Shown piece after piece: positions 2,357 through 20,389 of a DNA stretch of 27,580 nt. The DNA is from a virus (Duplodnaviria; Heunggongvirae; Uroviricota; Caudoviricetes). The DNA lies in IMG/VR virus record IMGVR_UViG_2671180903_000020. One strand, given 5' to 3'. Under the pieces are notes generated by a model. It did no database searches and was not told the origin of the DNA. It saw nothing but the letters and a program-made list of their open reading frames with translations. The translations under genes were made by a program, and so were the position numbers. Numbering within the stretch: the stretch's first letter is position 1; each line of letters opens with the position of its first letter.

Positions 2357-2552
2357 TCTGCTTTTCCTGCATCAGGAGAAAGACAATCATGGCGGCGCGG
2401 ATACTTCCGGTATCTTTTTACGCGATATTCCCCTTCAATGGCACATACAAGAAGAGAGCCATCAACAGGAGTGATTGAGGAATCGACAACCAGCAACGCT
2501 TAATTATCTATAGTGTCGTATTTGCTTCATAAAATATGGCGAATAACACAAA

Positions 2553-2584
2553 GCCCGCAGCAGCTCATTGTGCGGGCTTTTCTT
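2553..2584 (-). terminator. Rho-independent terminator-like hairpin (GCCCGCA/TGCGGGC stem) with T/A runs on both sides; possibly bidirectional
   Basis: aaGCCCGCAgcagctcattgTGCGGGCtttt read directly; lies just downstream of the 2650..3264 gene on the minus strand. Confidence 0.5.
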
Positions 2585-2649: not shown

Positions 2650-3264
2650 TTATCTAAAAGTCTTTCCACTTTTAACATCTAGGTATATTCTGTTCGACAA
2701 CGTCATTCCTCCGCAATATGTGAAATAGATGTTTTCACCCTTATTGCTTGATGCCATCCACCCTCCGATTTCCTTAAAATCGCTTTCCGTGCAGACCCCT
2801 TCATTTATTAACTTCCTAGCTGCCGAAGAAAACTCTTTTTTGTATATACGGTAGTCATCAGATCCTTTGATTAAAGTATCATCTCCGCTCGCATTTTCAG
2901 CAGGATCTGATGGCCTTTCACTGCTAAGATCACTAAGTTTAACCCATTCTGAAAACTTGCCATTAACGATTCCATTTTTTCTTGTGCAGGATTTATTACC
3001 TTCTTTAATATATTCGCTTTCCCCTCCAACACATGAGGCTGAATATGGCTCAGTTATACGAACCCATTCACCTTTTTTTTCTAGAAAATCTACGCCTTCC
3101 CTGAAAAATAGTTTCCCAGCCACTCCACATTTACTTGAAGGGCAGGTATGTCTTTCCGTTCGATCAACAACAACCCATAGTTTTGATTCATTTTTTGCCA
3201 TTGCCGATGGTATTTGAGATGAGACAATTAACGTAAGCCCTAAAATTAGTATTGATTTTTTCAT
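2650..3264 (-). CDS. Secreted Cys-rich protein of unknown function (204 aa) with Sec-type signal peptide
   Basis: N-terminus MKKSILILGLTLIVSSQIPSAMA-KN; about eight Cys in mature part; AT-rich coding sequence compared with flanking phage genes. Confidence 0.65.
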   Translation of the reverse strand: MKKSILILGLTLIVSSQIPSAMAKNESKLWVVVDRTERHTCPSSKCGVAGKLFFREGVDFLEKKGEWVRITEPYSASCVGGESEYIKEGNKSCTRKNGIVNGKFSEWVKLSDLSSERPSDPAENASGDDTLIKGSDDYRIYKKEFSSAARKLINEGVCTESDFKEIGGWMASSNKGENIYFTYCGGMTLSNRIYLDVKSGKTFR

Positions 3265-3562
3265 TGTAATTTCCTTTTACTTTTTACAAAGCGTTTAATC
3301 ATGGCTGATTATCTCTAAGCGTAGTAACAGCCTTGTGCGAAACATGTTACCAAATCGCCATTTCAGTGTATCCGCAGTTAGGCTGCCACTTCAAGGATTC
3401 CTAATTACATGGTACGTAAGCGTAAAATCCCGTTGGTTGGCGGGTAATAACTCTGATCAAATCTCCCTTGTCTTTTGCTCTTACGTATGCAGCTCTTGTG
3501 TATTCAACCCAGGCCTCCAGTTCAGCAATACGCTTACTTCCATCCGAGATAACACCTTCTAC

Positions 3563-3814
3563 TCACGCTGCTCGTTGAGTTTTGATTTTTGCTGTCTCCA
3601 GCTCAACACGCAGTTTCCCCACCGTTAGCGCAATATCCTCGTTATCCTGGTCGCGGCGTTTGATGTATTGCTGGTTTCTTTCCCTTTCATCCAGCAGTGT
3701 CAGCACAATCGATGGTGTTACCAGCTCATGGAAATGGTCCGCGTCAAATCCCCAGTTGTCATGCATTGCCTGCTCTGCCGCTTCACGCAGTGCCTGAGAG
3801 TGAATTACGCTCAC
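3563..3814 (-). CDS. Hypothetical protein (83 aa) in the position lambda gives to ea22
   Basis: ORF in track, 4-nt overlap with upstream orf73-like gene; no family recognised. Confidence 0.45.
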   Translation of the reverse strand: MSVIHSQALREAAEQAMHDNWGFDADHFHELVTPSIVLTLLDERERNQQYIKRRDQDNEDIALTVGKLRVELETAKIKTQRAA

Positions 3815-6239: not shown

Positions 6240-6536
6240 TTATACCTCTGAATCAATATCAACCTGGTGGTGAGCAATGGTTTCAACCATGTACCGGATG
6301 TGTTCTGCCATGCGTTCCTGAAACTCAACATCGTCATCAAACGCACGGGTAATGGCTTTTTTGCTGGCCCCGTGGCGTTGCAAATGATCGATGCATAGCG
6401 ATTCAAACAGGTGCTGGGGCAGGCCTTTTTCCATGTCGTCTGCCAGTTCTGCCTCTTTCTCTTCACGGGCGATCTGCTGGTAGTGACGCGCCCAGCTCTG
6501 AGCCTCAAGACGATCCTGAATGTAATAAGCGTTCAT
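6240..6536 (-). CDS. gam: Gam, RecBCD inhibitor (98 aa short form only)
   Basis: Protein [60 protein letters not shown]... matches lambda GamS; upstream in-frame region reaches a stop without another start codon. Confidence 0.9.
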
Positions 6537-6590
6537 GGCTGAACTCCTGAAAATGGCTGTGAAAATATCGCCCGCGAAATGCCAGGCTGA

Positions 6591-6755
6591 TTAGGAAAAC
6601 AGGAAAGGGGGGTAGTGAATGCTTTTGCTTGATCTCAGTTTCTGTATTAATATCCATTTTTTATAAGCGTCGACGGCCTCACGAAACATCTTTTCATCGC
6701 CAATAAAAGTGGCGATAGTGAATTTAGTCTGGATAGCCATAATTGTTTGATCCAT
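6591..6755 (-). CDS. kil: Kil (host cell-division inhibitor), 54 aa from internal Met of the tracked ORF
   Basis: [43 protein letters not shown]... resembles lambda Kil; start ATG 6755 overlaps the 3' end of cIII by 32 nt as in lambda. Confidence 0.75.
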
Positions 6756-6894
6756 TTTTCGGGACTCCTGGCTGATTAAGTATGTCGATAAGGCGTTTCC
6801 ATCCGTCACGTAATTTACGGGTAATTCGTTCAAGTAAAGATTCATTTAGTTGGAAGGCACCCATGCGAGCGCCTCCCGCGATTGCGTAAATCAT
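6724..6894 (-). CDS. cIII: cIII (56 aa), not in the ORF track (under 60 aa)
   Basis: Hand translation from ATG 6894: [56 protein letters not shown]; core [33 protein letters not shown] matches lambda CIII; AAGGAA Shine-Dalgarno 7 nt upstream. Confidence 0.8.
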   Translation of the reverse strand: MIYAIAGGARMGAFQLNESLLERITRKLRDGWKRLIDILNQPGVPKNGSNNYGYPD

Positions 6895-6918
6895 GGGTGG
6901 TTCCTTATGTTGGTTTTA

Positions 6919-7887
6919 TTAGTAGGTTATTTTTGTTGCGAATACTTCGCCTTTTACGATGGCTGTTATGATATTTTTAGCAACATCTTCTGATGCACCA
7001 ACCTTGATAAGGTCAGCAAGTATTTTGTTATTTACTTCTTTCCGGTGAGCTTTATCCTTTGCTCTACGCTCTTCTTCTTCCTTGATTCTTTTTTCTTCTG
7101 CTATTCTGGCTTGCTCTTTTGCTTCAGCCTCGCGCCGGATTCGTTCAGCCTCCTCCTGTGCTTTTCGGCGTTCTGCTTCAATTGCCGCCTGCTTTTCTCT
7201 TTCAGCTCGTTCTGCTGCCTCTTTTGCTTCGCGCTGTGCTCGTTGCTCGGCTTCAATGCGTTCACGCTCTGCACGTTCCGCTGCGGCCTTAGCTTCTGCT
7301 TCTCGCCTTGCTGCTGCTTCAATTTCGGCTTTTGCCTTTGCTTCGGCTTCTGCTCTGGCTTTCTCTTCAGCTTCTCTTTTTAAGCGTTCTTCATGCTCTC
7401 GCTTTTCCTGCTCCGCTTTGAGTCTTGCCTCTTCTCTTTTGCGGTCAAATTCGCGATCCATCAAAATCGCTATTTCATGGTCAGACTCAATTTGCTTTGC
7501 GAGAGCTTCAGCTGCTGCCTTAGCTTCTTCTTCGGCTTTAATCCGCGCCTGTTCTTCCTCATAATCAGTAAGAGGCTGGCGCGCCTTGGCTTTCAGCTCA
7601 TCAAGGCGATCACGCACTGTCTTGCGGTTGGCATCAATTAGCTTTGGAATTTCCTTCAGTTCAGCAACAAGGTCTTTGCCAAGACCATCGAGATATGTTT
7701 TCGTCTGCGCAACTTTATACGCCAGAGAAGCGATCTCCTTTCTGCCCTTTGCCGTTGTGATATCAGGCACAAAGGACATAACTTCACGTTCAACCTTTTG
7801 AAGGATTTCTTCAATCTGGTCGGCAGACTGAAATACAGTCATTGCATTTGCTTTTTCAATAACAACTAAATCTGTTACTTCACTCAT
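6919..7887 (-). CDS. Coiled-coil protein (322 aa) with a long low-complexity E/A/K/R-rich central region, in the position lambda gives to ea10
   Basis: ORF in track; central ~150 aa of EAKAKAE/AERAERE-type heptad repeats; produces the spurious Cys/Phe/Ser-rich antisense ORFs at 7045..7801. Confidence 0.7.
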   Translation of the reverse strand: MSEVTDLVVIEKANAMTVFQSADQIEEILQKVEREVMSFVPDITTAKGRKEIASLAYKVAQTKTYLDGLGKDLVAELKEIPKLIDANRKTVRDRLDELKAKARQPLTDYEEEQARIKAEEEAKAAAEALAKQIESDHEIAILMDREFDRKREEARLKAEQEKREHEERLKREAEEKARAEAEAKAKAEIEAAARREAEAKAAAERAERERIEAEQRAQREAKEAAERAEREKQAAIEAERRKAQEEAERIRREAEAKEQARIAEEKRIKEEEERRAKDKAHRKEVNNKILADLIKVGASEDVAKNIITAIVKGEVFATKITY

Positions 7888-7921
7888 ATATCCTCCTTCG
7901 TTGTATTCTTTAAAAACGCTC

Positions 7922-8290
7922 TCAGGCGGCTTTGATAGTCATATCATCTGAATCAAATATTCCTGATGTATCGATATCGGTAATTCTTATTCCTTCGCTA
8001 CCATCCATTGGAGGCCATCCTTCCTGACCATTTCCATCATTCCAGTCGAACTCACACACAACACCATATGCATTTAAGTCGCTTGAAATTGCTATAAGCA
8101 GAGCATGTTGCGCCAGCATGATTAATACAGCATTTAATACAGAGCCGTGTTTATTGAGTCGGTATTCAGAGTCTGACCAGAAATTATTAATCTGGTGAAG
8201 TTTTTCCTCTGTCATTACGTCATGGTCGATTTCAATTTCTATTGATGCTTTCCAGTCGTAATCAATGATGTATTTTTTGATGTTTGACAT
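7922..8290 (-). CDS. Strongly acidic hypothetical protein (122 aa)
   Basis: ORF in track; by my count 20+ Asp/Glu against fewer than 10 Lys/Arg; ends ...GIFDSDDMTIKAA; lies between ral and the coiled-coil gene. Confidence 0.55.
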   Translation of the reverse strand: MSNIKKYIIDYDWKASIEIEIDHDVMTEEKLHQINNFWSDSEYRLNKHGSVLNAVLIMLAQHALLIAISSDLNAYGVVCEFDWNDGNGQEGWPPMDGSEGIRITDIDTSGIFDSDDMTIKAA

Positions 8291-8310
8291 CTATTCATAT
8301 CCTCATAGAT

Positions 8311-8336
8311 AAAAAATCGCCCTCACACTGGAGGGC
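8311..8336 (-). terminator. Rho-independent terminator-like hairpin (GCCCTC-cagtgt-GAGGGC then U6 on minus strand)
   Basis: Read directly; located downstream of ral in the leftward transcription direction. Confidence 0.45.
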
Positions 8337-8472
8337 AAAGAAGATTTCCAATAATCAGAACAAATCGGCTCCTGTTTAGTTACGAGCGACATTGCTCCGT
8401 GTATTCACTCGTTGGAATGAATACACGGTGCAGTGTTTATTCTGTTATTTATGCCAAAAATAAAGGCCACTA

Positions 8473-8674
8473 TCAGGCAGCTTTGTTGTTCTGTTAACCA
8501 AGTTCTCTGGCAATCATTGCCGTCGTTCGTATTGCCCATTTATCGACATATTTCCCATCTTCCATTACAGGAAACATTTCTTCAGGCTTAACCATGCATT
8601 CCGATTGCAGCTTGCATCCATTGCATCGCTTGAATTGTCCACACCATTGATTTTTATCAATAGTCGTAGTCATA
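8473..8674 (-). pseudogene. ral: ral (restriction alleviation) carrying an apparent +1 frameshift and an in-frame TAA
   Basis: From ATG 8674: MTTTIDKNQWCG then the frame breaks at a CCC run (8639-8641); the +1 frame continues QFKRCNGCKLQSECMVKPEEMFPVMEDGKYVDKWAIRTTAMIARELG, then TAA (8494-8496), then QNNKAA and TGA at 8473. Total 202 nt versus the 201 nt I recall for lambda ral. Confidence 0.55.
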
Positions 8675-8744
8675 CGGATAGTCCTGGTATTGTTCCATCA
8701 CATCCTGAGGATGCTCTTCGAACTCTTCAAATTCTTCTTCCATA
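8658..8744 (-). CDS. 28-codon highly acidic ORF overlapping the ral start by 17 nt (lambda orf28 position)
   Basis: Hand translation MEEEFEEFEEHPQDVMEQYQDYPYDYDY*; AAGGTGA Shine-Dalgarno 4 nt upstream; geometry matches what I recall of lambda orf28. Confidence 0.4.
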
Positions 8745-8870
8745 TATCACCTTAAATAGTGGATTGCGGTAGTAAAGATTGTGCCTGTCTTTTAACCACA
8801 TCAGGCTCGGTGGTTCTCGTGTACCCCTACAGCGAGAAATCGGATAAACTATTACAACCCCTACAGTTTG

Positions 8871-9422
8871 ATGAGTATAGAAATGGATCCACTCGTTATT
8901 CTCGGACGAGTGTTCAGTAATGAACCTCTGGAGAGAACCATGTATATGATCGTTATCTGGGTTGGACTTCTGCTTTTAAGCCCAGATAACTGGCCTGAAT
9001 ATGTTAATGAGAGAATCGGTATTCCTCATGTGTGGCATGTTTTCGTCTTTGCTCTTGCATTTTCGCTAGCAATTAATGTGCATCGATTATCAGCTATTGC
9101 CAGCGCCAGATATAAGCGATTTAAGCTAAGAAAACGCATTAAGATGCAAAACGATAAAGTGCGATCAGTAATTCAAAACCTTACAGAAGAGCAATCTATG
9201 GTTTTGTGCGCAGCCCTTAATGAAGGCAGGAAGTATGTGGTTACATCAAAACAATTCCCATACATTAGTGAGTTGATTGAGCTTGGTGTGTTGAACAAAA
9301 CTTTTTCCCGATGGAACGGGAAGCATATATTATTCCCTATTGAGGATATTTACTGGACTGAATTAGTTGCCAGCTATGATCCATATAATATTGAGATAAA
9401 GCCAAGGCCAATATCTAAGTAA
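8871..9422 (+). CDS. sieB: Superinfection exclusion protein B (membrane protein); ATG 8871 (track starts at TTG 8868)
   Basis: Hydrophobic N-terminal half (MYMIVIWVGLLLLSPDNWPEYVNERIGIPHVWHVFVFALAFSLAINVH...) resembling lambda SieB; convergent with N, stop codons abut. Confidence 0.75.
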   Translation: MSIEMDPLVILGRVFSNEPLERTMYMIVIWVGLLLLSPDNWPEYVNERIGIPHVWHVFVFALAFSLAINVHRLSAIASARYKRFKLRKRIKMQNDKVRSVIQNLTEEQSMVLCAALNEGRKYVVTSKQFPYISELIELGVLNKTFSRWNGKHILFPIEDIYWTELVASYDPYNIEIKPRPISK

Positions 9423-9746
9423 CTAGGTAAGAGGAATCGATTTTCCCTTAATTTTCTGGCGTCCACTGCATGTTATGCCGCGTTCGCCAGGCTTGCTGTA
9501 CCATGTGCGCTGATTCTTGCGCTCAATACGTTGCAGGTTGCTTTCAATCTGTTTGTGGTATTCAGCCAGCACTGTAAGGTCTATCGGATTTAGTGCGCTT
9601 TCTACTCGTGATTTCGGTTTGCGATTCAGCGAGAGAATAGGGCGGTTAACTGGTTTTGCGCTTACCCCAACCAACAGGGGATTTGCTGCTTTCCATTGAG
9701 CCTGTTTCTCTGCGCGACGTTCGCGGCGGCGTGTTTGTGCATCCAT
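9423..9746 (-). CDS. N: Antitermination protein N (107 aa), internal start of the tracked 136-aa ORF
   Basis: MDAQTRRRERRAEKQAQWKAANPLLVGVSAKPVNRPILSLNRKPKSRVESALNPIDLTVLAEYHKQIESNLQRIERKNQRTWYSKPGERGITCSGRQKIKGKSIPL matches lambda N including the Arg-rich RNA-binding N-terminus. Confidence 0.9.
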   Translation of the reverse strand: MDAQTRRRERRAEKQAQWKAANPLLVGVSAKPVNRPILSLNRKPKSRVESALNPIDLTVLAEYHKQIESNLQRIERKNQRTWYSKPGERGITCSGRQKIKGKSIPLT

Positions 9747-9803
9747 CTGGATTCTCCTGTCAGTTAGCTTTGGTGGTGTGTGGCTGTTGTAGTCCTGAAC
9801 GAA

Positions 9804-9820
9804 CCCCCCCCCCCCCCCCC
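9804..9820. repeat. Homopolymer tract C17 (G17 on the N mRNA strand) in the N 5' leader
   Basis: Counted directly: gaac + 17 C + gcgattggcac; about 58 nt upstream of the N start codon. Confidence 0.9.
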
Positions 9821-9913
9821 GCGATTGGCACATTGGCAGCTAATCCGGAATCGCACTTCCGGCCAATGCTTCGTTTCGTATCACACACCCCAAAGCCTTC
9901 TGCTTTGAATGCT

Positions 9914-9944
9914 GCCCTTCTTCAGGGCTTAATTTTTAAGAGCA
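9914..9944 (-). promoter_or_regulatory. nutL: nutL (boxB hairpin GCCCTGAAGAAGGGC at 9914..9928 and boxA-like element at 9936..9944)
   Basis: Reverse complement reads TGCTCTTAAAAATTAAGCCCTGAAGAAGGGC, matching lambda nut boxA/boxB organisation. Confidence 0.75.
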
Positions 9945-9988
9945 TCACCTTCATGGTGGTCAGTGCGTCCTGCTGATGGTTTAAAATT

Positions 9989-10056
9989 ACAAGAAAGATT
10001 GTATGTTGTAAACAATAAATATTGTAAAAAGAGGTGTGCAAAACAAACTCCATTGT
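9989..10056 (-). promoter_or_regulatory. OL operators (three 14-bp ACAA-N6-TTGT sites, 434 type) overlapping pL
   Basis: ACAAGAAAGATTGT (9989..10002), ACAATAAATATTGT (10012..10025), ACAAACTCCATTGT (10043..10056). Confidence 0.7.
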
Positions 10057-10106
10057 TTTTAAACGGAAAATAGTTTGTTTTTTGGTTATTGAGATTGAGG
10101 TGGGGA

Positions 10107-11459
<1,353 letters not shown>

Positions 11460-11467
11460 GACATTCC

Positions 11468-11499
11468 CGCTCTTACACATCCCCGCCCTGAAAAAGGGC
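11468..11499 (+). promoter_or_regulatory. nutR: nutR (boxA CGCTCTTACA, boxB GCCCTGAAAAAGGGC), followed by tR1 region
   Basis: Read directly; matches lambda nutR. Confidence 0.7.
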
Positions 11500-11578
11500 A
11501 TCCAATTAAACCACACCTATGGTGTATGCATTTATTTGCATACATTCAATCAATTGTTATCTAAGGAAATACTTACAT

Positions 11579-11872
11579 ATGGTTCGTGCAAACAAACGCA
11601 ACGAGGCTCTACGAATCGAGAGTGCGTTGCTTAACAAAATCGCAATGCTTGGAACTGAGAAGACAGCGGAAGCTGTGGGAGTTGATAAGTCGCAGATCAG
11701 CAGGTGGAAGAGAGACTGGATTCCAAAGTTCTCAATGCTGCTTGCTGTTCTTGAATGGGGGGTCGTTGACGACGACATGGCTCGATTGGCGCGACAAGTT
11801 GCTGCGATTCTCACCAATAAAAAACGCCCGGCGGCAACCGAGCGTTCTGAACAAATCCAGATGGAGTTCTGA
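11579..11872 (+). CDS. cII: CII transcriptional activator (97 aa)
   Basis: MVRANKRNEALRIESALLNKIAMLGTEKTAEAVGVDKSQISRWKRDWIPKFSMLLAVLEWGVVDDDMARLARQVAAILTNKKRPAATERSEQIQMEF matches lambda CII. Confidence 0.9.
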   Translation: MVRANKRNEALRIESALLNKIAMLGTEKTAEAVGVDKSQISRWKRDWIPKFSMLLAVLEWGVVDDDMARLARQVAAILTNKKRPAATERSEQIQMEF

Positions 11873-11894
11873 GGTCATTACTGGATCTATCAAC
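11817..11894 (-). ncRNA. oop: oop antisense RNA, overlapping the cII 3' end
   Basis: Reverse complement reads GTTGATAGATCCAGTAATGACCTCAGAACTCCATCTGGATTTGTTCAGAACGCTCGGTTGCCGCCGGGCGTTTTTTATT, i.e. lambda oop with its terminator hairpin. Confidence 0.65.
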
Positions 11895-11904
11895 AGGAGT
11901 CATT

Positions 11905-12804
11905 ATGACAAATACAGCAAAAATACTCAACTTCGGCAGAGGTAACTTTGCCGGACAGGAGCGTAATGTGGCAGATCTCGATGATGGTTACGCCAGACTA
12001 TCAAATATGCTGCTTGAGGCTTATTCAGGCGCAGATCTGACCAAGCGACAGTTTAAAGTGCTGCTTGCCATTCTGCGTAAAACCTATGGGTGGAATAAAC
12101 CAATGGACAGAATCACCGATTCTCAACTTAGTGAGATTACAAAGTTACCTGTCAAACGATGCAATGAAGCCAAGTTAGAGCTCGTCAGAATGAATATTAT
12201 CAAGCAGCAAGGCGGCATGTTTGGACCAAATAAAAACATCTCAGAATGGTGCATCCCTCAAAACGAGGGAAAATCCCCTAAAACGAGGGATAAAACATCC
12301 CTCAAATTGGGGGATTGCTATCCCTCAAAACAGGGGGACACAAAAGACACTATTACAAAAGAAAAAAGAAAAGATTATTCGTCCGAGAATTCTGGCGAAT
12401 CCTCTGACCAGCCAGAAAACGATCTTTCTGTGGTTAAACCGGATGCTGCAATTCAGAGCGGCAGCAGGTGGGGGACAGCAGAAGACCTGACCGCCGCAGA
12501 GTGGATGTTTGACATGGTGAAGACTATCGCGCCATCAGCCAGAAAACCGAATTTTGCAGGGTGGGCTAACGATATCCGCCTGATGCGTGAACGTGACGGA
12601 CGTAACCACCGCGACATGTGCGTGCTGTTCCGCTGGGCATGCCTGGACAACTTCTGGTCCGGTAACGTGCTGAGCCCGGCCAAACTCCGCGACAAGTGGA
12701 CCCAGCTCGAAATCAACCGTAACAAGCAACAGGCAGTAGTGACAGCCAGCAAACCAAAACTCGACTTGACAAACACAGACTGGATTTACGGGGTGGATCT
12801 ATGA
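11905..12804 (+). CDS. O: Replication initiator O (299 aa)
   Basis: MTNTAKILNFGRGNFAGQERNVADLDDGYARLSNMLLEAYSGADLTKRQFKVLLAILRKTYGWNKPMDRITDSQLSEITKL... matches lambda O. Confidence 0.95.
   Translation: MTNTAKILNFGRGNFAGQERNVADLDDGYARLSNMLLEAYSGADLTKRQFKVLLAILRKTYGWNKPMDRITDSQLSEITKLPVKRCNEAKLELVRMNIIKQQGGMFGPNKNISEWCIPQNEGKSPKTRDKTSLKLGDCYPSKQGDTKDTITKEKRKDYSSENSGESSDQPENDLSVVKPDAAIQSGSRWGTAEDLTAAEWMFDMVKTIAPSARKPNFAGWANDIRLMRERDGRNHRDMCVLFRWACLDNFWSGNVLSPAKLRDKWTQLEINRNKQQAVVTASKPKLDLTNTDWIYGVDL
12253..12380. repeat. ori-lambda: four ~19-bp iterons (TCCCTCAAAACGAGGGA-like) plus adjacent AT-rich region, inside O
   Basis: atccctcaaaacgagggaaa / atcccctaaaacgagggata / catccctcaaattgggggat / tatccctcaaaacagggggac then aaaagaaaaaagaaaag. 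Confidence 0.8.
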
Positions 12805-16107: not shown

Positions 16108-16292
16108 ACGCCACAATTCAAACGATACCAGAGCTTCTTATCCAGACACGAGGAAATCAGACCGAAGTGGCGAGGATGCTTTCCTGCGCAAGAGGAACAG
16201 TGCTCAAGTACAACCGAGACAGCAAAGGCGAGCGTCACGTAATAGTTAACGGCGTCCTGATGGTCAAACAGGGCAAGAGGGGAAGACCATGA
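16104..16292 (+). CDS. NinH-like small DNA-binding protein (62 aa)
   Basis: ...GNQTEVARMLSCARGTVLKYNRDSKGERHVIVNGVLMV... resembles lambda NinH. Confidence 0.6.
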   Translation: MNATIQTIPELLIQTRGNQTEVARMLSCARGTVLKYNRDSKGERHVIVNGVLMVKQGKRGRP

Positions 16293-16912
16293 GACTCGAA
16301 AGCGTAGCTAAATTTCACTCGCCAAAAAGCCCGATGATGAGCGACTCACCACGGGCTACGGCTTCTGACTCTCTTTCCGGTACTGATGTGATGGCTGCTA
16401 TGGGGATGGCGCAATCACAAGCCGGATTCGGAATGGCTGCATTCTGCGGTAAGCATGAACTCAGCCAGAACGACAAACAAAAGGCTATCAACTATCTGAT
16501 GCAATTTGCACACAAGGTATCGGGGAAATACCGTGGTGTGGCAAAGCTCGAAGGAAATACTAAGGCAAAGGTACTGCAAGTGCTCGCAACATTCGCTTAT
16601 GCGGATTATTGCCGTAGTGCCGCTACGCCGGGCGCAAGATGCAGAGATTGCCACGGTACAGGCCGTGCGGTTGATATAGCCAAAACAGAGCAGTGGGGGA
16701 TAGTTGCTGAGAAAGAGTGCGGAAGATGTAAAGGCGTCGGTTATTCAAGAATGCCAGCAAGCGCCGCATATCGCGCTGTGACGATGCTAATCCCAAACCT
16801 TACCCAACCCACCTGGTCACGCACTGTTAAGCCGCTGTATGACGCTCTGGTTGTGCAATGCCACAAGGAAGAGTCAATCGCAGACAACATTTTGAATGCG
16901 ATCACACGTTAG
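16289..16912 (+). CDS. Q: Late-gene antiterminator Q (lambda type, 207 aa)
   Basis: MRLESVAKFHSPKSPMMSDSPRATASDSLSGTDVMAAMGMAQSQAGFGMAAFCGKHELSQNDKQKAINYLMQFAHKVSGKYRGVAKLEG... matches lambda Q. Confidence 0.9.
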   Translation: MRLESVAKFHSPKSPMMSDSPRATASDSLSGTDVMAAMGMAQSQAGFGMAAFCGKHELSQNDKQKAINYLMQFAHKVSGKYRGVAKLEGNTKAKVLQVLATFAYADYCRSAATPGARCRDCHGTGRAVDIAKTEQWGIVAEKECGRCKGVGYSRMPASAAYRAVTMLIPNLTQPTWSRTVKPLYDALVVQCHKEESIADNILNAITR

Positions 16913-17149: not shown

Positions 17150-17908
17150 ATGAGTTGTAAGCCAATGTTATCATCTTGTATTGGGGTGGTTATGAAGGAT
17201 GGTGCGCTGCTCAGGAGTTCTTCACTTTTTATTGCCTACATGGGATGCCTTGGATGGGGGAGTGCTTATTTCTATGGATGGGGTACTTCTTTTTACTACG
17301 GCTTCCCATGGTGGATTGTAGGTGCAGGTGTTGATGATGTTGCCAGAAGTTTATTTTTTGCAGTTATCGTCATTGCTATATTTCTTATCGGTTGGGGTAT
17401 TGGTGTTGTATTCTTTTTCGCAGTGAAAAGAAAACATTCTATGCAAGAGCTAAATGTATTTCGCCTTTATTTTGCTGTGGAATTATTGTTTGTGCCGGCA
17501 ATTATTGAGTTTTCTATATTGAGACAGAAGATTCAGGTACCTCTTTTGCTACTGTCAGCAGCGATTGCGCTGGCGGTTACAATTTCGATAAGATCTTATG
17601 GGCGATTTTTATCGGTATCATGCTTCTATGATAAGCCATTTATAAAAAAACATTTTTTTGAGATTGTGATGATTGCTTTTGTGGCATATTTCTGGCTTTT
17701 TTCATTTCTGACAGGATATTACAAACCGCAGTTTAAGAAAGAATATGAAATGATTAATTATAATGATGGTTGGTATTATGTTCTTGCTCGTTATGATAAT
17801 TGTCTGGTTTTGTCTACTTCTTTCAATGCAGGTAGTAAAAGGTTTGTCATTTATCAATCAGCACAAGATAAGAATCTTCAGGTTGATATTGTAAGGACCA
17901 GAATTTAA
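17150..17908 (+). CDS. AT-rich multi-pass membrane protein of unknown function (238-252 aa; likely start ATG 17192 after GGGGTGG)
   Basis: At least four hydrophobic helix-length segments (e.g. LFFAVIVIAIFLIGWGIGVVFFFAV, VPLLLLSAAIALAVTISI, FFEIVMIAFVAYFWLFSFLTG) then a ~60-aa soluble tail; GC far below flanking phage genes. Confidence 0.6.
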   Translation: MSCKPMLSSCIGVVMKDGALLRSSSLFIAYMGCLGWGSAYFYGWGTSFYYGFPWWIVGAGVDDVARSLFFAVIVIAIFLIGWGIGVVFFFAVKRKHSMQELNVFRLYFAVELLFVPAIIEFSILRQKIQVPLLLLSAAIALAVTISIRSYGRFLSVSCFYDKPFIKKHFFEIVMIAFVAYFWLFSFLTGYYKPQFKKEYEMINYNDGWYYVLARYDNCLVLSTSFNAGSKRFVIYQSAQDKNLQVDIVRTRI

Positions 17909-18451: not shown

Positions 18452-20389
18452 ATGTCGATTAAACATTATGATGTTGTCAGGGCGGCGTCGCCGTCAGATC
18501 TTGCGGAAAAGCTGACACACAAACTGAAAGAGGGCTGGCAGCCGTTTGGTAGTCCTGTGGCCATAACCCCTTATACCCTGATGCAGGCGATTGCCGCGGA
18601 GGGGGATGTGACCACGCCAGTGGTTGTGCCCGGCACGGGGGATGGTGGCTATCCGGGAGTGGTCACCACGGAGCCAGATTATTACTACGTTATTCCACTG
18701 GCCGGGCAGTCGAACGGCATGGCTTACGGTGAGGGGCTTCCTCTGCCGCAGACATATGACCGTCCTGACCCGCGTATAAAGCAACTGGCTCGTCGCAGCA
18801 CAGTGACGCCGGATGGCGCTCCCTGTAAATATAACGACATTATTCCGGCAGACCACTGTCTGCATGATGTACAGGACATGAGCCGTCTTAACCATCCGAA
18901 AGCTGACCTGTCGAAAGGTCAGTACGGAACCGTGGGGCAGGGGCTGCATATTGCCAAAAAGCTGCTGCCGTTTATACCGGCGAATGCGGGTATTCTTCTG
19001 GTTCCGTGCTGCCGTGGTGGTTCAGCTTTCACCACCGGGGCAGATGGAACATACAGTGACGTGACCGGTGCCTCAGAGAGTTCTACCCGCTGGGGTGTGG
19101 GCAGGCCGCTGTATAAGGATCTCATCGGTCGTACAAAAGCCGCGCTGGCAAAGAACCCGAAAAATGTGCTGCTTGCCGTGGTGTGGATGCAGGGGGAATT
19201 TGACTTTGACGGAACGCCAGCAAATCACACAGCCCGTTTTACAGAAGTAGTGGAACAATATCGTACGGACCTTGCAGATATGGTGGGACAGTGCGCTGGT
19301 GGTTCTGCTGACGGTGTTCCCTGGATATGTGGAGACACAACTTATTTCTGGAAGCAGAAGAGCGAATCCACTTACCAGACGGTGTACGGCAGTTACAAAA
19401 ACAAAACGGAAAAGAATATTCACTTTGTGCCGTTCATGACCGATGAGAACGGAGCAAATGTCCCGACGAACAAACCGGAAGAAGACCCGGATATTCCGGC
19501 ATCAGGATATTACGGTGCGGCCTCCCGGACGTCGGCAAACTGGACGTCAGCAGACCGTGCGAGCCATTTCAGCTCATGGGCACGCAGGGGGATTATTTCT
19601 GACCGTCTTGCCTCAGCGATTCTTCTCCATGCAGGACGGACGGCTGAACTGGTGGGTGGGGAACAGGTTGTGATGCCGCCGGATGAGAAGCCGTCACCGG
19701 ACACACCATCAACACCGTCAACGGACGGGAAATCAGTGACAACGCTGCTTTATTACCGTGCAACAGAGTCAGGTGGTTTACTGAATCCGCAGGGATGGGG
19801 AGCTGAAGGAGGGCGTGCATTGGTAGTTGATGATGCAGGTGCTGCAGGAGGTAAGGCGCTGAGGTGGACCAAACAGACAGGAAGTTCCTCGTGGTTTATG
19901 CAGCATGATGTCGGTAATGGCGCAGACCTGCTGGAGAAGGGCGGGCTTATCAGTTGTCGTTTTAAAGTTGATGGCACACTGACAGCTAATCAGTACGCAC
20001 TGGCGCTGTACTGGCCGGTTTCTTCACTGCCTCAGGGCGTCACACTGGAAGGTAATGCCGGTCATAACCTGCTGGCGTCGTTTTACGTACAGAGCGATGC
20101 CACAGACCTTAATGTGATGTACCACAAGGGAAATGCTGGTCAGAACACGAAGCTGGGGTCATTCGGCGCATTTGATAACGAATGGCATACGCTGGGCTTC
20201 CGTTTTGCCGGTAACAACAGTATTGAGGTGACGCCGGTCATTGATGGTAAGGACGGGACGCCGTTCATGCTGTCACAGTCACCGGTCGGCACGTTTACGG
20301 CAGACAAATTGCGCGTGACCGATATCACTAGCGGTGCGACATATCCGGTGCTGATTGAAAGTATAACAGTGGAAGTGAATAACCCGTAA
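18452..20389 (+). CDS. nanS-p: Prophage sialate O-acetylesterase (NanS-p type, 645 aa)
   Basis: Recognised from memory as the esterase encoded downstream of stx in Stx phages; N-terminus MSIKHYDVVRAASPSDLAEKLTHKLKEGWQPFGSP; GGGAGA Shine-Dalgarno. Confidence 0.8.
   Translation: MSIKHYDVVRAASPSDLAEKLTHKLKEGWQPFGSPVAITPYTLMQAIAAEGDVTTPVVVPGTGDGGYPGVVTTEPDYYYVIPLAGQSNGMAYGEGLPLPQTYDRPDPRIKQLARRSTVTPDGAPCKYNDIIPADHCLHDVQDMSRLNHPKADLSKGQYGTVGQGLHIAKKLLPFIPANAGILLVPCCRGGSAFTTGADGTYSDVTGASESSTRWGVGRPLYKDLIGRTKAALAKNPKNVLLAVVWMQGEFDFDGTPANHTARFTEVVEQYRTDLADMVGQCAGGSADGVPWICGDTTYFWKQKSESTYQTVYGSYKNKTEKNIHFVPFMTDENGANVPTNKPEEDPDIPASGYYGAASRTSANWTSADRASHFSSWARRGIISDRLASAILLHAGRTAELVGGEQVVMPPDEKPSPDTPSTPSTDGKSVTTLLYYRATESGGLLNPQGWGAEGGRALVVDDAGAAGGKALRWTKQTGSSSWFMQHDVGNGADLLEKGGLISCRFKVDGTLTANQYALALYWPVSSLPQGVTLEGNAGHNLLASFYVQSDATDLNVMYHKGNAGQNTKLGSFGAFDNEWHTLGFRFAGNNSIEVTPVIDGKDGTPFMLSQSPVGTFTADKLRVTDITSGATYPVLIESITVEVNNP

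Follow-up and report, generated by a model that had tools for sequence, protein, structure and literature searches.

A probable single-gene cargo unit of a lambdoid Escherichia coli prophage encodes a predicted exported SH3b protein with an undescribed, widespread C-terminal domain

Most prophage cargo genes are still labelled 'hypothetical'. Bor, Lom and SodC are examples of exported prophage products that can act in virulence or in the interaction with a eukaryotic host, and prophage morons whose exported product has an SH3b wall-binding module are a known kind of element. T4 Sp and Imm, T5 Llp and TP-J34 Ltp are exported superinfection-exclusion or immunity proteins, and Ivy, MliC/PliC, PliG and PliI are periplasmic lysozyme inhibitors. 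Exclusion proteins and lysozyme inhibitors of this kind are small and exported, often disulfide- or lipid-anchored, encoded by single phage genes, and periplasmic, and they have no partner genes. The gene described here encodes a 204-residue protein that shows no similarity, in sequence or fold, to the Ivy, MliC/PliC, PliG, PliI or Tai/Tsi families. It is best explained as a single-gene cargo unit (moron) occupying a hypervariable slot that extends from xis to a TraR/DksA-like gene. We tentatively propose that its product is a peptidoglycan-tethered binding protein that would protect the envelope by exclusion or immunity, a reading that we favour but hold with limited confidence.

The window, by which we mean the whole 27,580-nucleotide stretch of DNA that was analysed, is a lambdoid (lambda-like) E. 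coli prophage. Its minus strand carries int (1-1074), xis, exo, bet, gam and N (9423-9833), and its other genes include SieB, a cI-like repressor, Q (16289-16912), a NanS-like esterase and the terminase region. The cargo gene and the features around it are listed in Table 1. The PHROG 8310 profile matches the product over its full length (residues 1-204 of 204, E 1.8e-136) and belongs to a family with no annotated function. The dN/dS ratio is 0.075 against the copy in an Escherichia fergusonii P1-like phage-plasmid and 0.04-0.09 in other pairs, which rules out a chance ORF and marks a real, selected and functional gene.

Table 1. Cargo gene, protein domains, expression signals and flanking remnants, in window coordinates
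Feature	Position	Strand	Basis or remarks
Complete CDS, 204 aa plus stop, ATG start	2650..3264	minus	PHROG 8310; RefSeq WP_000748282.1; both 'hypothetical protein'
Ribosome-binding site AAGGA	3272..3276	minus	7 nt before the ATG; kept in the E. fergusonii copy
Candidate weak sigma-70 promoter: TTGAAG (3394-3389), 18 nt, TACACT (3370-3365)	3365..3394	minus	Deduced from alignment with the E. fergusonii copy
Signal peptide, residues 1-23 (MKKSILILGLTLIVSSQIPSAMA)	3196..3264	minus	Hydropathy and -3/-1 rule; predicted SPase-I cut after A-M-A
SH3b domain, residues ~27-115, insertion at ~74-100	2920..3186	minus	Predicted disulfides C41/C46 and C78/C93
Conserved linker with RPxDP motif (R117, P118, D120, P121)	2875..2919	minus	Modelled at high confidence
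C-terminal domain, undescribed family	2653..2874	minus	Helix-helix-helix-strand-strand-strand; ~75 residues
Intrinsic-terminator-like hairpin with U-rich tail	2540..2583	minus	3' of the gene; outside the block shared with E. fergusonii
Block shared with E. fergusonii P1-like phage-plasmid, 85% DNA identity	2648..3406	minus	142 bp upstream plus the ORF; ends at the stop
UmuD/HumD-like S24 peptidase gene fragment, flanking scar	2396..2499	minus	RefSeq annotation of an identical prophage: incomplete pseudogene
Truncated Ea22-like gene, flanking scar	3563..3814	minus	PF13935, E 3.3e-19; RefSeq: frameshifted, incomplete pseudogene

The first-pass annotation had described an AT-rich coding sequence, followed by a terminator hairpin, and had read it as lysogenic-conversion cargo. 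The low GC content, the hairpin and the status as cargo are borne out. The gene has a GC content of 0.380 against 0.482 for the window, and its GC3 is 0.298 against 0.57-0.62 for bet and exo. Downstream, a GC-rich hairpin formed by AAAGCCCGCA and TGCGGGCTTT occupies positions 2550-2583, 67-100 nt past the stop, and is followed on the minus strand by the U-rich tail GUGUUAUU. The 131-nt terminator region folds with a z-score of -3.7, an equally good fold being obtained in 1 of 200 shuffles; a consensus scanner called the hairpin on the plus strand only. In E. fergusonii the gene is also followed by a terminator-like hairpin, but not by the same one.

Cargo status is further supported by the patchy distribution of the gene relative to its surroundings. 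Of 5426 complete E. coli genomes, 4249 contain the xis-side and TraR/DksA-side flanks, 133 (about 2.5%) contain the gene, and only 118 match the whole 3.2-kb block at 80% coverage. The gene is thus present or absent between otherwise related phages and combines this with a distinct base composition and a terminator of its own, as morons do. It is flanked by two gene remnants, one from an Ea22-like gene that has been truncated, the other from an S24 peptidase gene of the UmuD/HumD-like type. A third remnant at 3443-3511 is a 69-bp match to the gene for a 221-residue hypothetical protein, and the E. coli plasmid NZ_CP020118 matches both the ~100-bp P1-type HumD/UmuD-like S24 fragment and this 69-bp piece, in the same order. 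Together the three scars suggest that the slot was assembled from P1-like plasmid DNA. The E. fergusonii P1-like phage-plasmid, an unrelated element, carries the same unit, and the ORF moves together with the 142 bp upstream of it.

The slot contains a second low-GC gene (0.364) at 1561-1989 on the minus strand, which encodes a DUF2513 protein (PF10711, E 7.7e-11; phrog_585, unknown function), and an adjoining gene at 2018-2356 that matches phrog_536 'transcriptional regulator'; both could represent additional cargo acquired independently. The AT content of the window is highest immediately downstream of Q (GC 0.33-0.39). This region holds a 252-residue ORF with no Pfam match (17150-17908, plus strand), at the site classic for post-Q morons and upstream of the NanS-like esterase gene (18452-20389; DUF1737+SASA+DUF6645). 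In the pL operon, a 322-residue ORF at 6919-7887 on the minus strand, also with no Pfam match, has an extreme content of E, K, A and R, with long coiled-coil-like repeats of the REAE/AKAE type, and a strong AT-skew anomaly of -0.63 at 7001-7500 falls within it.

Copies and homologs of the cargo gene occur on a wide range of vehicles. The isolated active phage Chlobot keeps the gene at the same place as this prophage, and E. coli isolates that have the gene were obtained from water, poultry, humans, a giant panda and elsewhere, without an evident link to pathotype. Copies with 100% identity are also found on Klebsiella and Citrobacter plasmids, and a conjugative plasmid of Enterobacter kobei contains the same prophage fragment (TraR to int) next to IS26. 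The Klebsiella, Enterobacter and Citrobacter plasmid copies were considered as independent vehicles and set aside, the one examined, in E. kobei, being a captured prophage fragment. Full-length homologs with 60-69% identity are found in Pseudomonas, Aeromonas and a Citrobacter plasmid. In an Aeromonas prophage, the homolog lies downstream of the Q antiterminator gene among other morons, and in Pseudomonas integrase islands of about 5-6 kb it is always the first gene after the integrase. A Citrobacter braakii ColRNAI plasmid of 5.3 kb (NZ_CP115736.1, 5310 bp) carries a 64%-identical homolog as one of four annotated genes; there it adjoins two unknown membrane proteins, making this plasmid a minimal natural vehicle. 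In diverse viral contigs, homologs lie beside terminase, portal, head or tail genes, and stand-alone C-terminal domains are encoded in Agrobacterium and Pararhodospirillum prophages. The copies in an Aeromonas hydrophila prophage and in Pseudomonas sp. BBP2017 share 86.5% DNA identity (dS 0.64, dN/dS 0.085), which indicates recent transfer between genera. In two genomes, NZ_AP027713.1 and NZ_OY754443.1, the 901-bp gene region is interrupted by IS1, and the match is split in two over about 1.68 kb.

No gene accompanies the cargo gene consistently across these settings. BLAST clustering of genes up to four positions from the target at 58 loci found no conserved neighbour, and only a tyrosine integrase recurs (6 loci). 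Among 150 neighbours, two genes on each side, Pfam detects Phage_integrase in four and everything else in two at most; a PHROG scan of 76 neighbours likewise revealed no conserved partner or functional class. The genes that follow the homolog in the Pseudomonas islands (6402-12411 in locus L002; also L006, L007, L008 and L009) are conserved unknowns of 208/236, 105/108, 130 (weak DUF6971) and 336 residues together with a KilA-N gene, and none of these matches an annotated phage structural family. A link to the pyocin genes that adjoin the P. monsensis island was dropped, as other islands do not have them.

The orientation of the gene bears on when it is used, and a protective role would require expression in lysogens. 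It lies on the strand of the pL operon and could therefore be an early lytic gene. Under this alternative, the product would be an accessory factor transcribed from pL with N antitermination, exported, and acting on the host wall, for example by tuning murein synthesis or turnover, by setting lysis timing, or by blocking superinfection during the lytic cycle only, rather than the product of a conversion gene expressed in the lysogen. The position within the operon, co-oriented with N, gam, bet, exo, xis and int, fits this reading, as does its retention at the same place in the active phage Chlobot; the promoter scanner, moreover, detected no consensus promoter on the cargo gene strand. The candidate promoter in Table 1 scores 8/12, under the scanner threshold of 9/12, and between the two mobile copies both of its hexamers are invariant, whereas the 18-nt spacer is variable. 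Against an early lytic role, the upstream 142 bp travel with the ORF, and the unit is found elsewhere after Q in Aeromonas, on the opposite strand beside head or terminase genes, after an island integrase, and on a 5.3-kb plasmid, non-equivalent sites that a lambda early role would not predict. We consider this alternative unlikely, and the interpretation of the gene as mobile cargo that protects the envelope is pursued below through its protein product.

The sequence of the N-terminus predicts export. An n-region MKK is followed by the h-region SILILGLTLIVSS and the c-region QIPSAMA, with alanine at -3 and -1 and a mature N-terminus that would begin KNESK. This arrangement, with a charged n-region, an h-region of at least 10 residues and small residues at -3 and -1, follows the sequence rules for Sec and SPase I. 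An 11-residue window within residues 4-15 has a mean Kyte-Doolittle value of 2.8, the most hydrophobic in the protein, and low confidence in the AlphaFold model is confined to residues 1-24, with pLDDT <50 at residues 1-14 and 19-24. Homologs carry a lipobox (L-x-x-C-G plus linker) or a transmembrane (TM) anchor in place of the signal peptide, which supports export at the level of the family. The 204-residue product is thus very probably exported to the periplasm.

The mature protein is predicted to consist of two domains. An AlphaFold2 model built from 39 homologs has a pLDDT of ~97 over residues 27-204, and the N-terminal domain adopts an SH3b beta-barrel fold. The Pfam SH3_3 model (PF08239) scores 16.2 bits on this protein (E 0.012), below its gathering threshold of 27; it matches 51 of 130 relatives at E<=0.01, the best at 1.6e-14, and is precomputed for several homologs. 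Peptidoglycan binding by this domain is assumed from the fold, and SH3b domains can also bind proteins. The linker that follows is modelled at high confidence, suggesting that the SH3b domain and the C-terminal domain (hereafter the C-domain) probably form one rigid unit. The C-domain is marked by the motifs SDD[YF], GGW.KS, YFTYCGG and NRIYL. Both C158 and C184 are found in every one of 130 diverse carriers. The polar residues S135, D136, D137, S172, T182 and N191 are also invariant and lie within the conserved motifs.

The cysteines of the mature protein number six (C41, C46, C78, C93, C158 and C184), all of them conserved, and not about eight as the first-pass annotation had counted. Its proposal of an exported, disulfide-bonded protein with a Sec signal peptide otherwise agrees with the present analysis. 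Cysteine co-occurrence was counted across 229 proteins: the four cysteines of the N-terminal domain occur together in 100 cases and are all missing from 26 SH3b domains that also lack the 74-100 insertion, and two sequences retain only C41 and C46. From this all-or-none pattern, we infer the disulfide pairs C41-C46, C78-C93 and C158-C184.

The C-domain belongs to a large family. A profile search among 1.84 billion representatives recovers at least 521 clusters at E<=0.001. In almost all of the 150 clusters listed, the C-domain lies at the extreme C-terminus, often alone behind a signal peptide, and its carriers show a signal peptide, lipobox or TM anchor at the N-terminus. It is therefore strongly supported as an independent module that is always extracytoplasmic. 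Its architectures include the C-domain alone (about 100 residues) behind a signal peptide or lipobox; SH3b plus C-domain, as in the 204-residue protein; either of these forms preceded by TM anchors that bear cytoplasmic zinc ribbons; ankyrin-repeat fusions; and one tandem duplication. One carrier (P0148) joins the C-domain to a membrane domain that Pfam identifies as Imm_superinfect (63 bits, cutoff 27.9), and another has an IalB domain. Two recurring, unannotated, cysteine-containing N-terminal domains are found in longer relatives, upstream of the SH3b plus C-domain module or, in P0099, of the C-domain alone. One has the motif 'AENIxACVK...' (P0099, P0117 and P0165) and the other 'PKEDCETxxxALGY...' (P0128, P0142, P0150 and P0210); these extra domains may be alternative targeting or partner modules.

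All 66 recovered C-domain loci come from diderm phyla, namely Gamma-, Alpha- and Betaproteobacteria, Campylobacterota, Acidobacteriota, Vampirovibrionales, Gemmatimonadota and Bacteroidota. Free-living carriers from marine, soil and groundwater habitats include Rhodobacteraceae, Rhizobiales, Marinobacter, Vibrio, Sulfurimonas and Acidobacteriota. All sources label the proteins of this family 'hypothetical' or 'exported hypothetical'. The gene itself is catalogued (PHROG 8310, WP_000748282.1) and uncharacterised, and both the C-domain and its combination with SH3b are undescribed. The C-domain has no Pfam entry and no solved relative. No functional label for the 204-residue protein emerged from Pfam, NCBIfam, PADLOC or PHROGs, PADLOC-DB contains no defence-protein model that matches it at E<=1, and no homology in Pfam, NCBIfam or PADLOC links the C-domain to any function. 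A literature search found no paper on WP_000748282.1, PHROG 8310 or related keywords. Profile searches of PDB sequences returned only TIM barrels with a four-fold repeat that had been designed de novo, namely sTIM11 and its relatives (E about 1e-6). These matches are spurious, an artefact of weak one-helix matches summed over internal repeats, with no single stretch significant.

These features allow a mechanism to be outlined for the proposed envelope-protecting protein. After export, DsbA would form the three disulfides, and the SH3b domain would dock the protein on peptidoglycan stem peptides. The C-domain would then serve as a binding or blocking module, its most likely role, since it is too small, shows no motif recognisable as catalytic, is able to work by itself, and requires no more than a tether. 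Its target might be a part of the envelope that Gram-negative bacteria share. Alternatively, it might be a weapon that has to pass the wall on its way in, for instance a virion lysozyme, a peptidoglycan hydrolase from a competitor, or the apparatus (ejection or tape-measure) of a phage that superinfects the cell. The carrier cell and the mobile element would in this way be protected through superinfection exclusion or immunity. With no partner gene and with repeated recruitment by temperate phages and plasmids, protection of the carrier is the most economical role, and the Imm_superinfect fusion, a single case, is a weak pointer to exclusion. In a more far-reaching version, which we regard as rather improbable, the YFTYCGG C-domain is the effector of an unrecognised and widespread class of single-gene periplasmic exclusion or immunity proteins, tethered by SH3b, lipid or TM anchors. 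Such proteins, carried by temperate phages, phage-plasmids and islands throughout the Gram-negative phyla, would block phage genome delivery or wall-degrading weapons.

The same domain layout can be read differently. Cell-wall hydrolases usually combine SH3b with a second functional domain, and the invariant polar residues of the C-domain cluster in its conserved motifs, so S135, D136, D137, S172 and N191 could instead form an active site (T182 is likewise invariant). The C-domain would then be a small enzyme that modifies peptidoglycan or another envelope component and is targeted to the wall by SH3b; we judge this quite unlikely. A role as a virulence or eukaryotic-host interaction factor, that is, classical lysogenic conversion, is more doubtful still. 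The IalB domain of one carrier points in this direction, but the family is widespread in bacteria that live free in the sea, in soil and in groundwater, the sources of the E. coli carriers follow no obvious pathotype, and the protein has a Sec signal only, with no route beyond the periplasm. Matches to phage structural proteins were looked for in PHROGs and BFVD and none was found; the first-pass annotation had named a confident match of this kind as one that would refute its reading. A virion wall-binding, spanin- or endolysin-related protein is effectively refuted: SH3b is common in endolysins, which provide the only BFVD matches, and some diverged homologs adjoin head or tail genes, but those matches are weak (best E 0.024, none <0.02; TM-score normalised to the query <=0.27), PHROG 8310 is of 'unknown function', the gene lies a long way from the prophage's lysis and morphogenesis modules and is also found on plasmids and non-phage islands, and the protein has a Sec signal peptide and no catalytic domain.

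The envelope-protecting reading is open to experiment, as the gene encodes a small, confidently modelled two-domain protein, forms a clear mobile unit, and has an isolated carrier phage in Chlobot. It thus offers a tractable entry to a widespread unannotated periplasmic domain that comprises hundreds of clusters and recurs on mobile elements in Proteobacteria, Campylobacterota, Acidobacteriota and other phyla. If the C-domain is a periplasmic exclusion or immunity module, it would represent both a new domain family and a new compact, partner-free form of envelope defence. If the protein only binds murein, it would still be a new wall-targeting architecture for Gram-negative bacteria.

Compared with described SH3b wall-binding proteins, such as lysostaphin, phage endolysins and YkfC-type NlpC/P60 proteins (PDB 9ovi, 3pvq, 3h41 and 6rk4), the 204-residue protein has no catalytic partner domain, and unlike Gram-positive SH3b wall anchors it is predicted to reside in the periplasm of a Gram-negative host. 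It further differs from other SH3b domains in its ~25-residue insertion and four extra cysteines. Compared with the lambdoid morons Bor, Lom and Cor, the cargo gene has no sequence or fold kinship and occupies an early-left slot (xis to exo) rather than the late region. Like them, however, it is self-contained, has an atypical GC content and a terminator, is present or absent in related prophages, and encodes a product that is, here by prediction, bound for the envelope. Small periplasmic modules built from helices and a sheet (BLIP-like, PepSY/YpeB, cystatin-like, MapZ and the DsbC N-domain) are also among the nearest comparisons, and a weak link to the exclusion proteins is provided by the one C-domain carrier that is fused to an Imm_superinfect domain.
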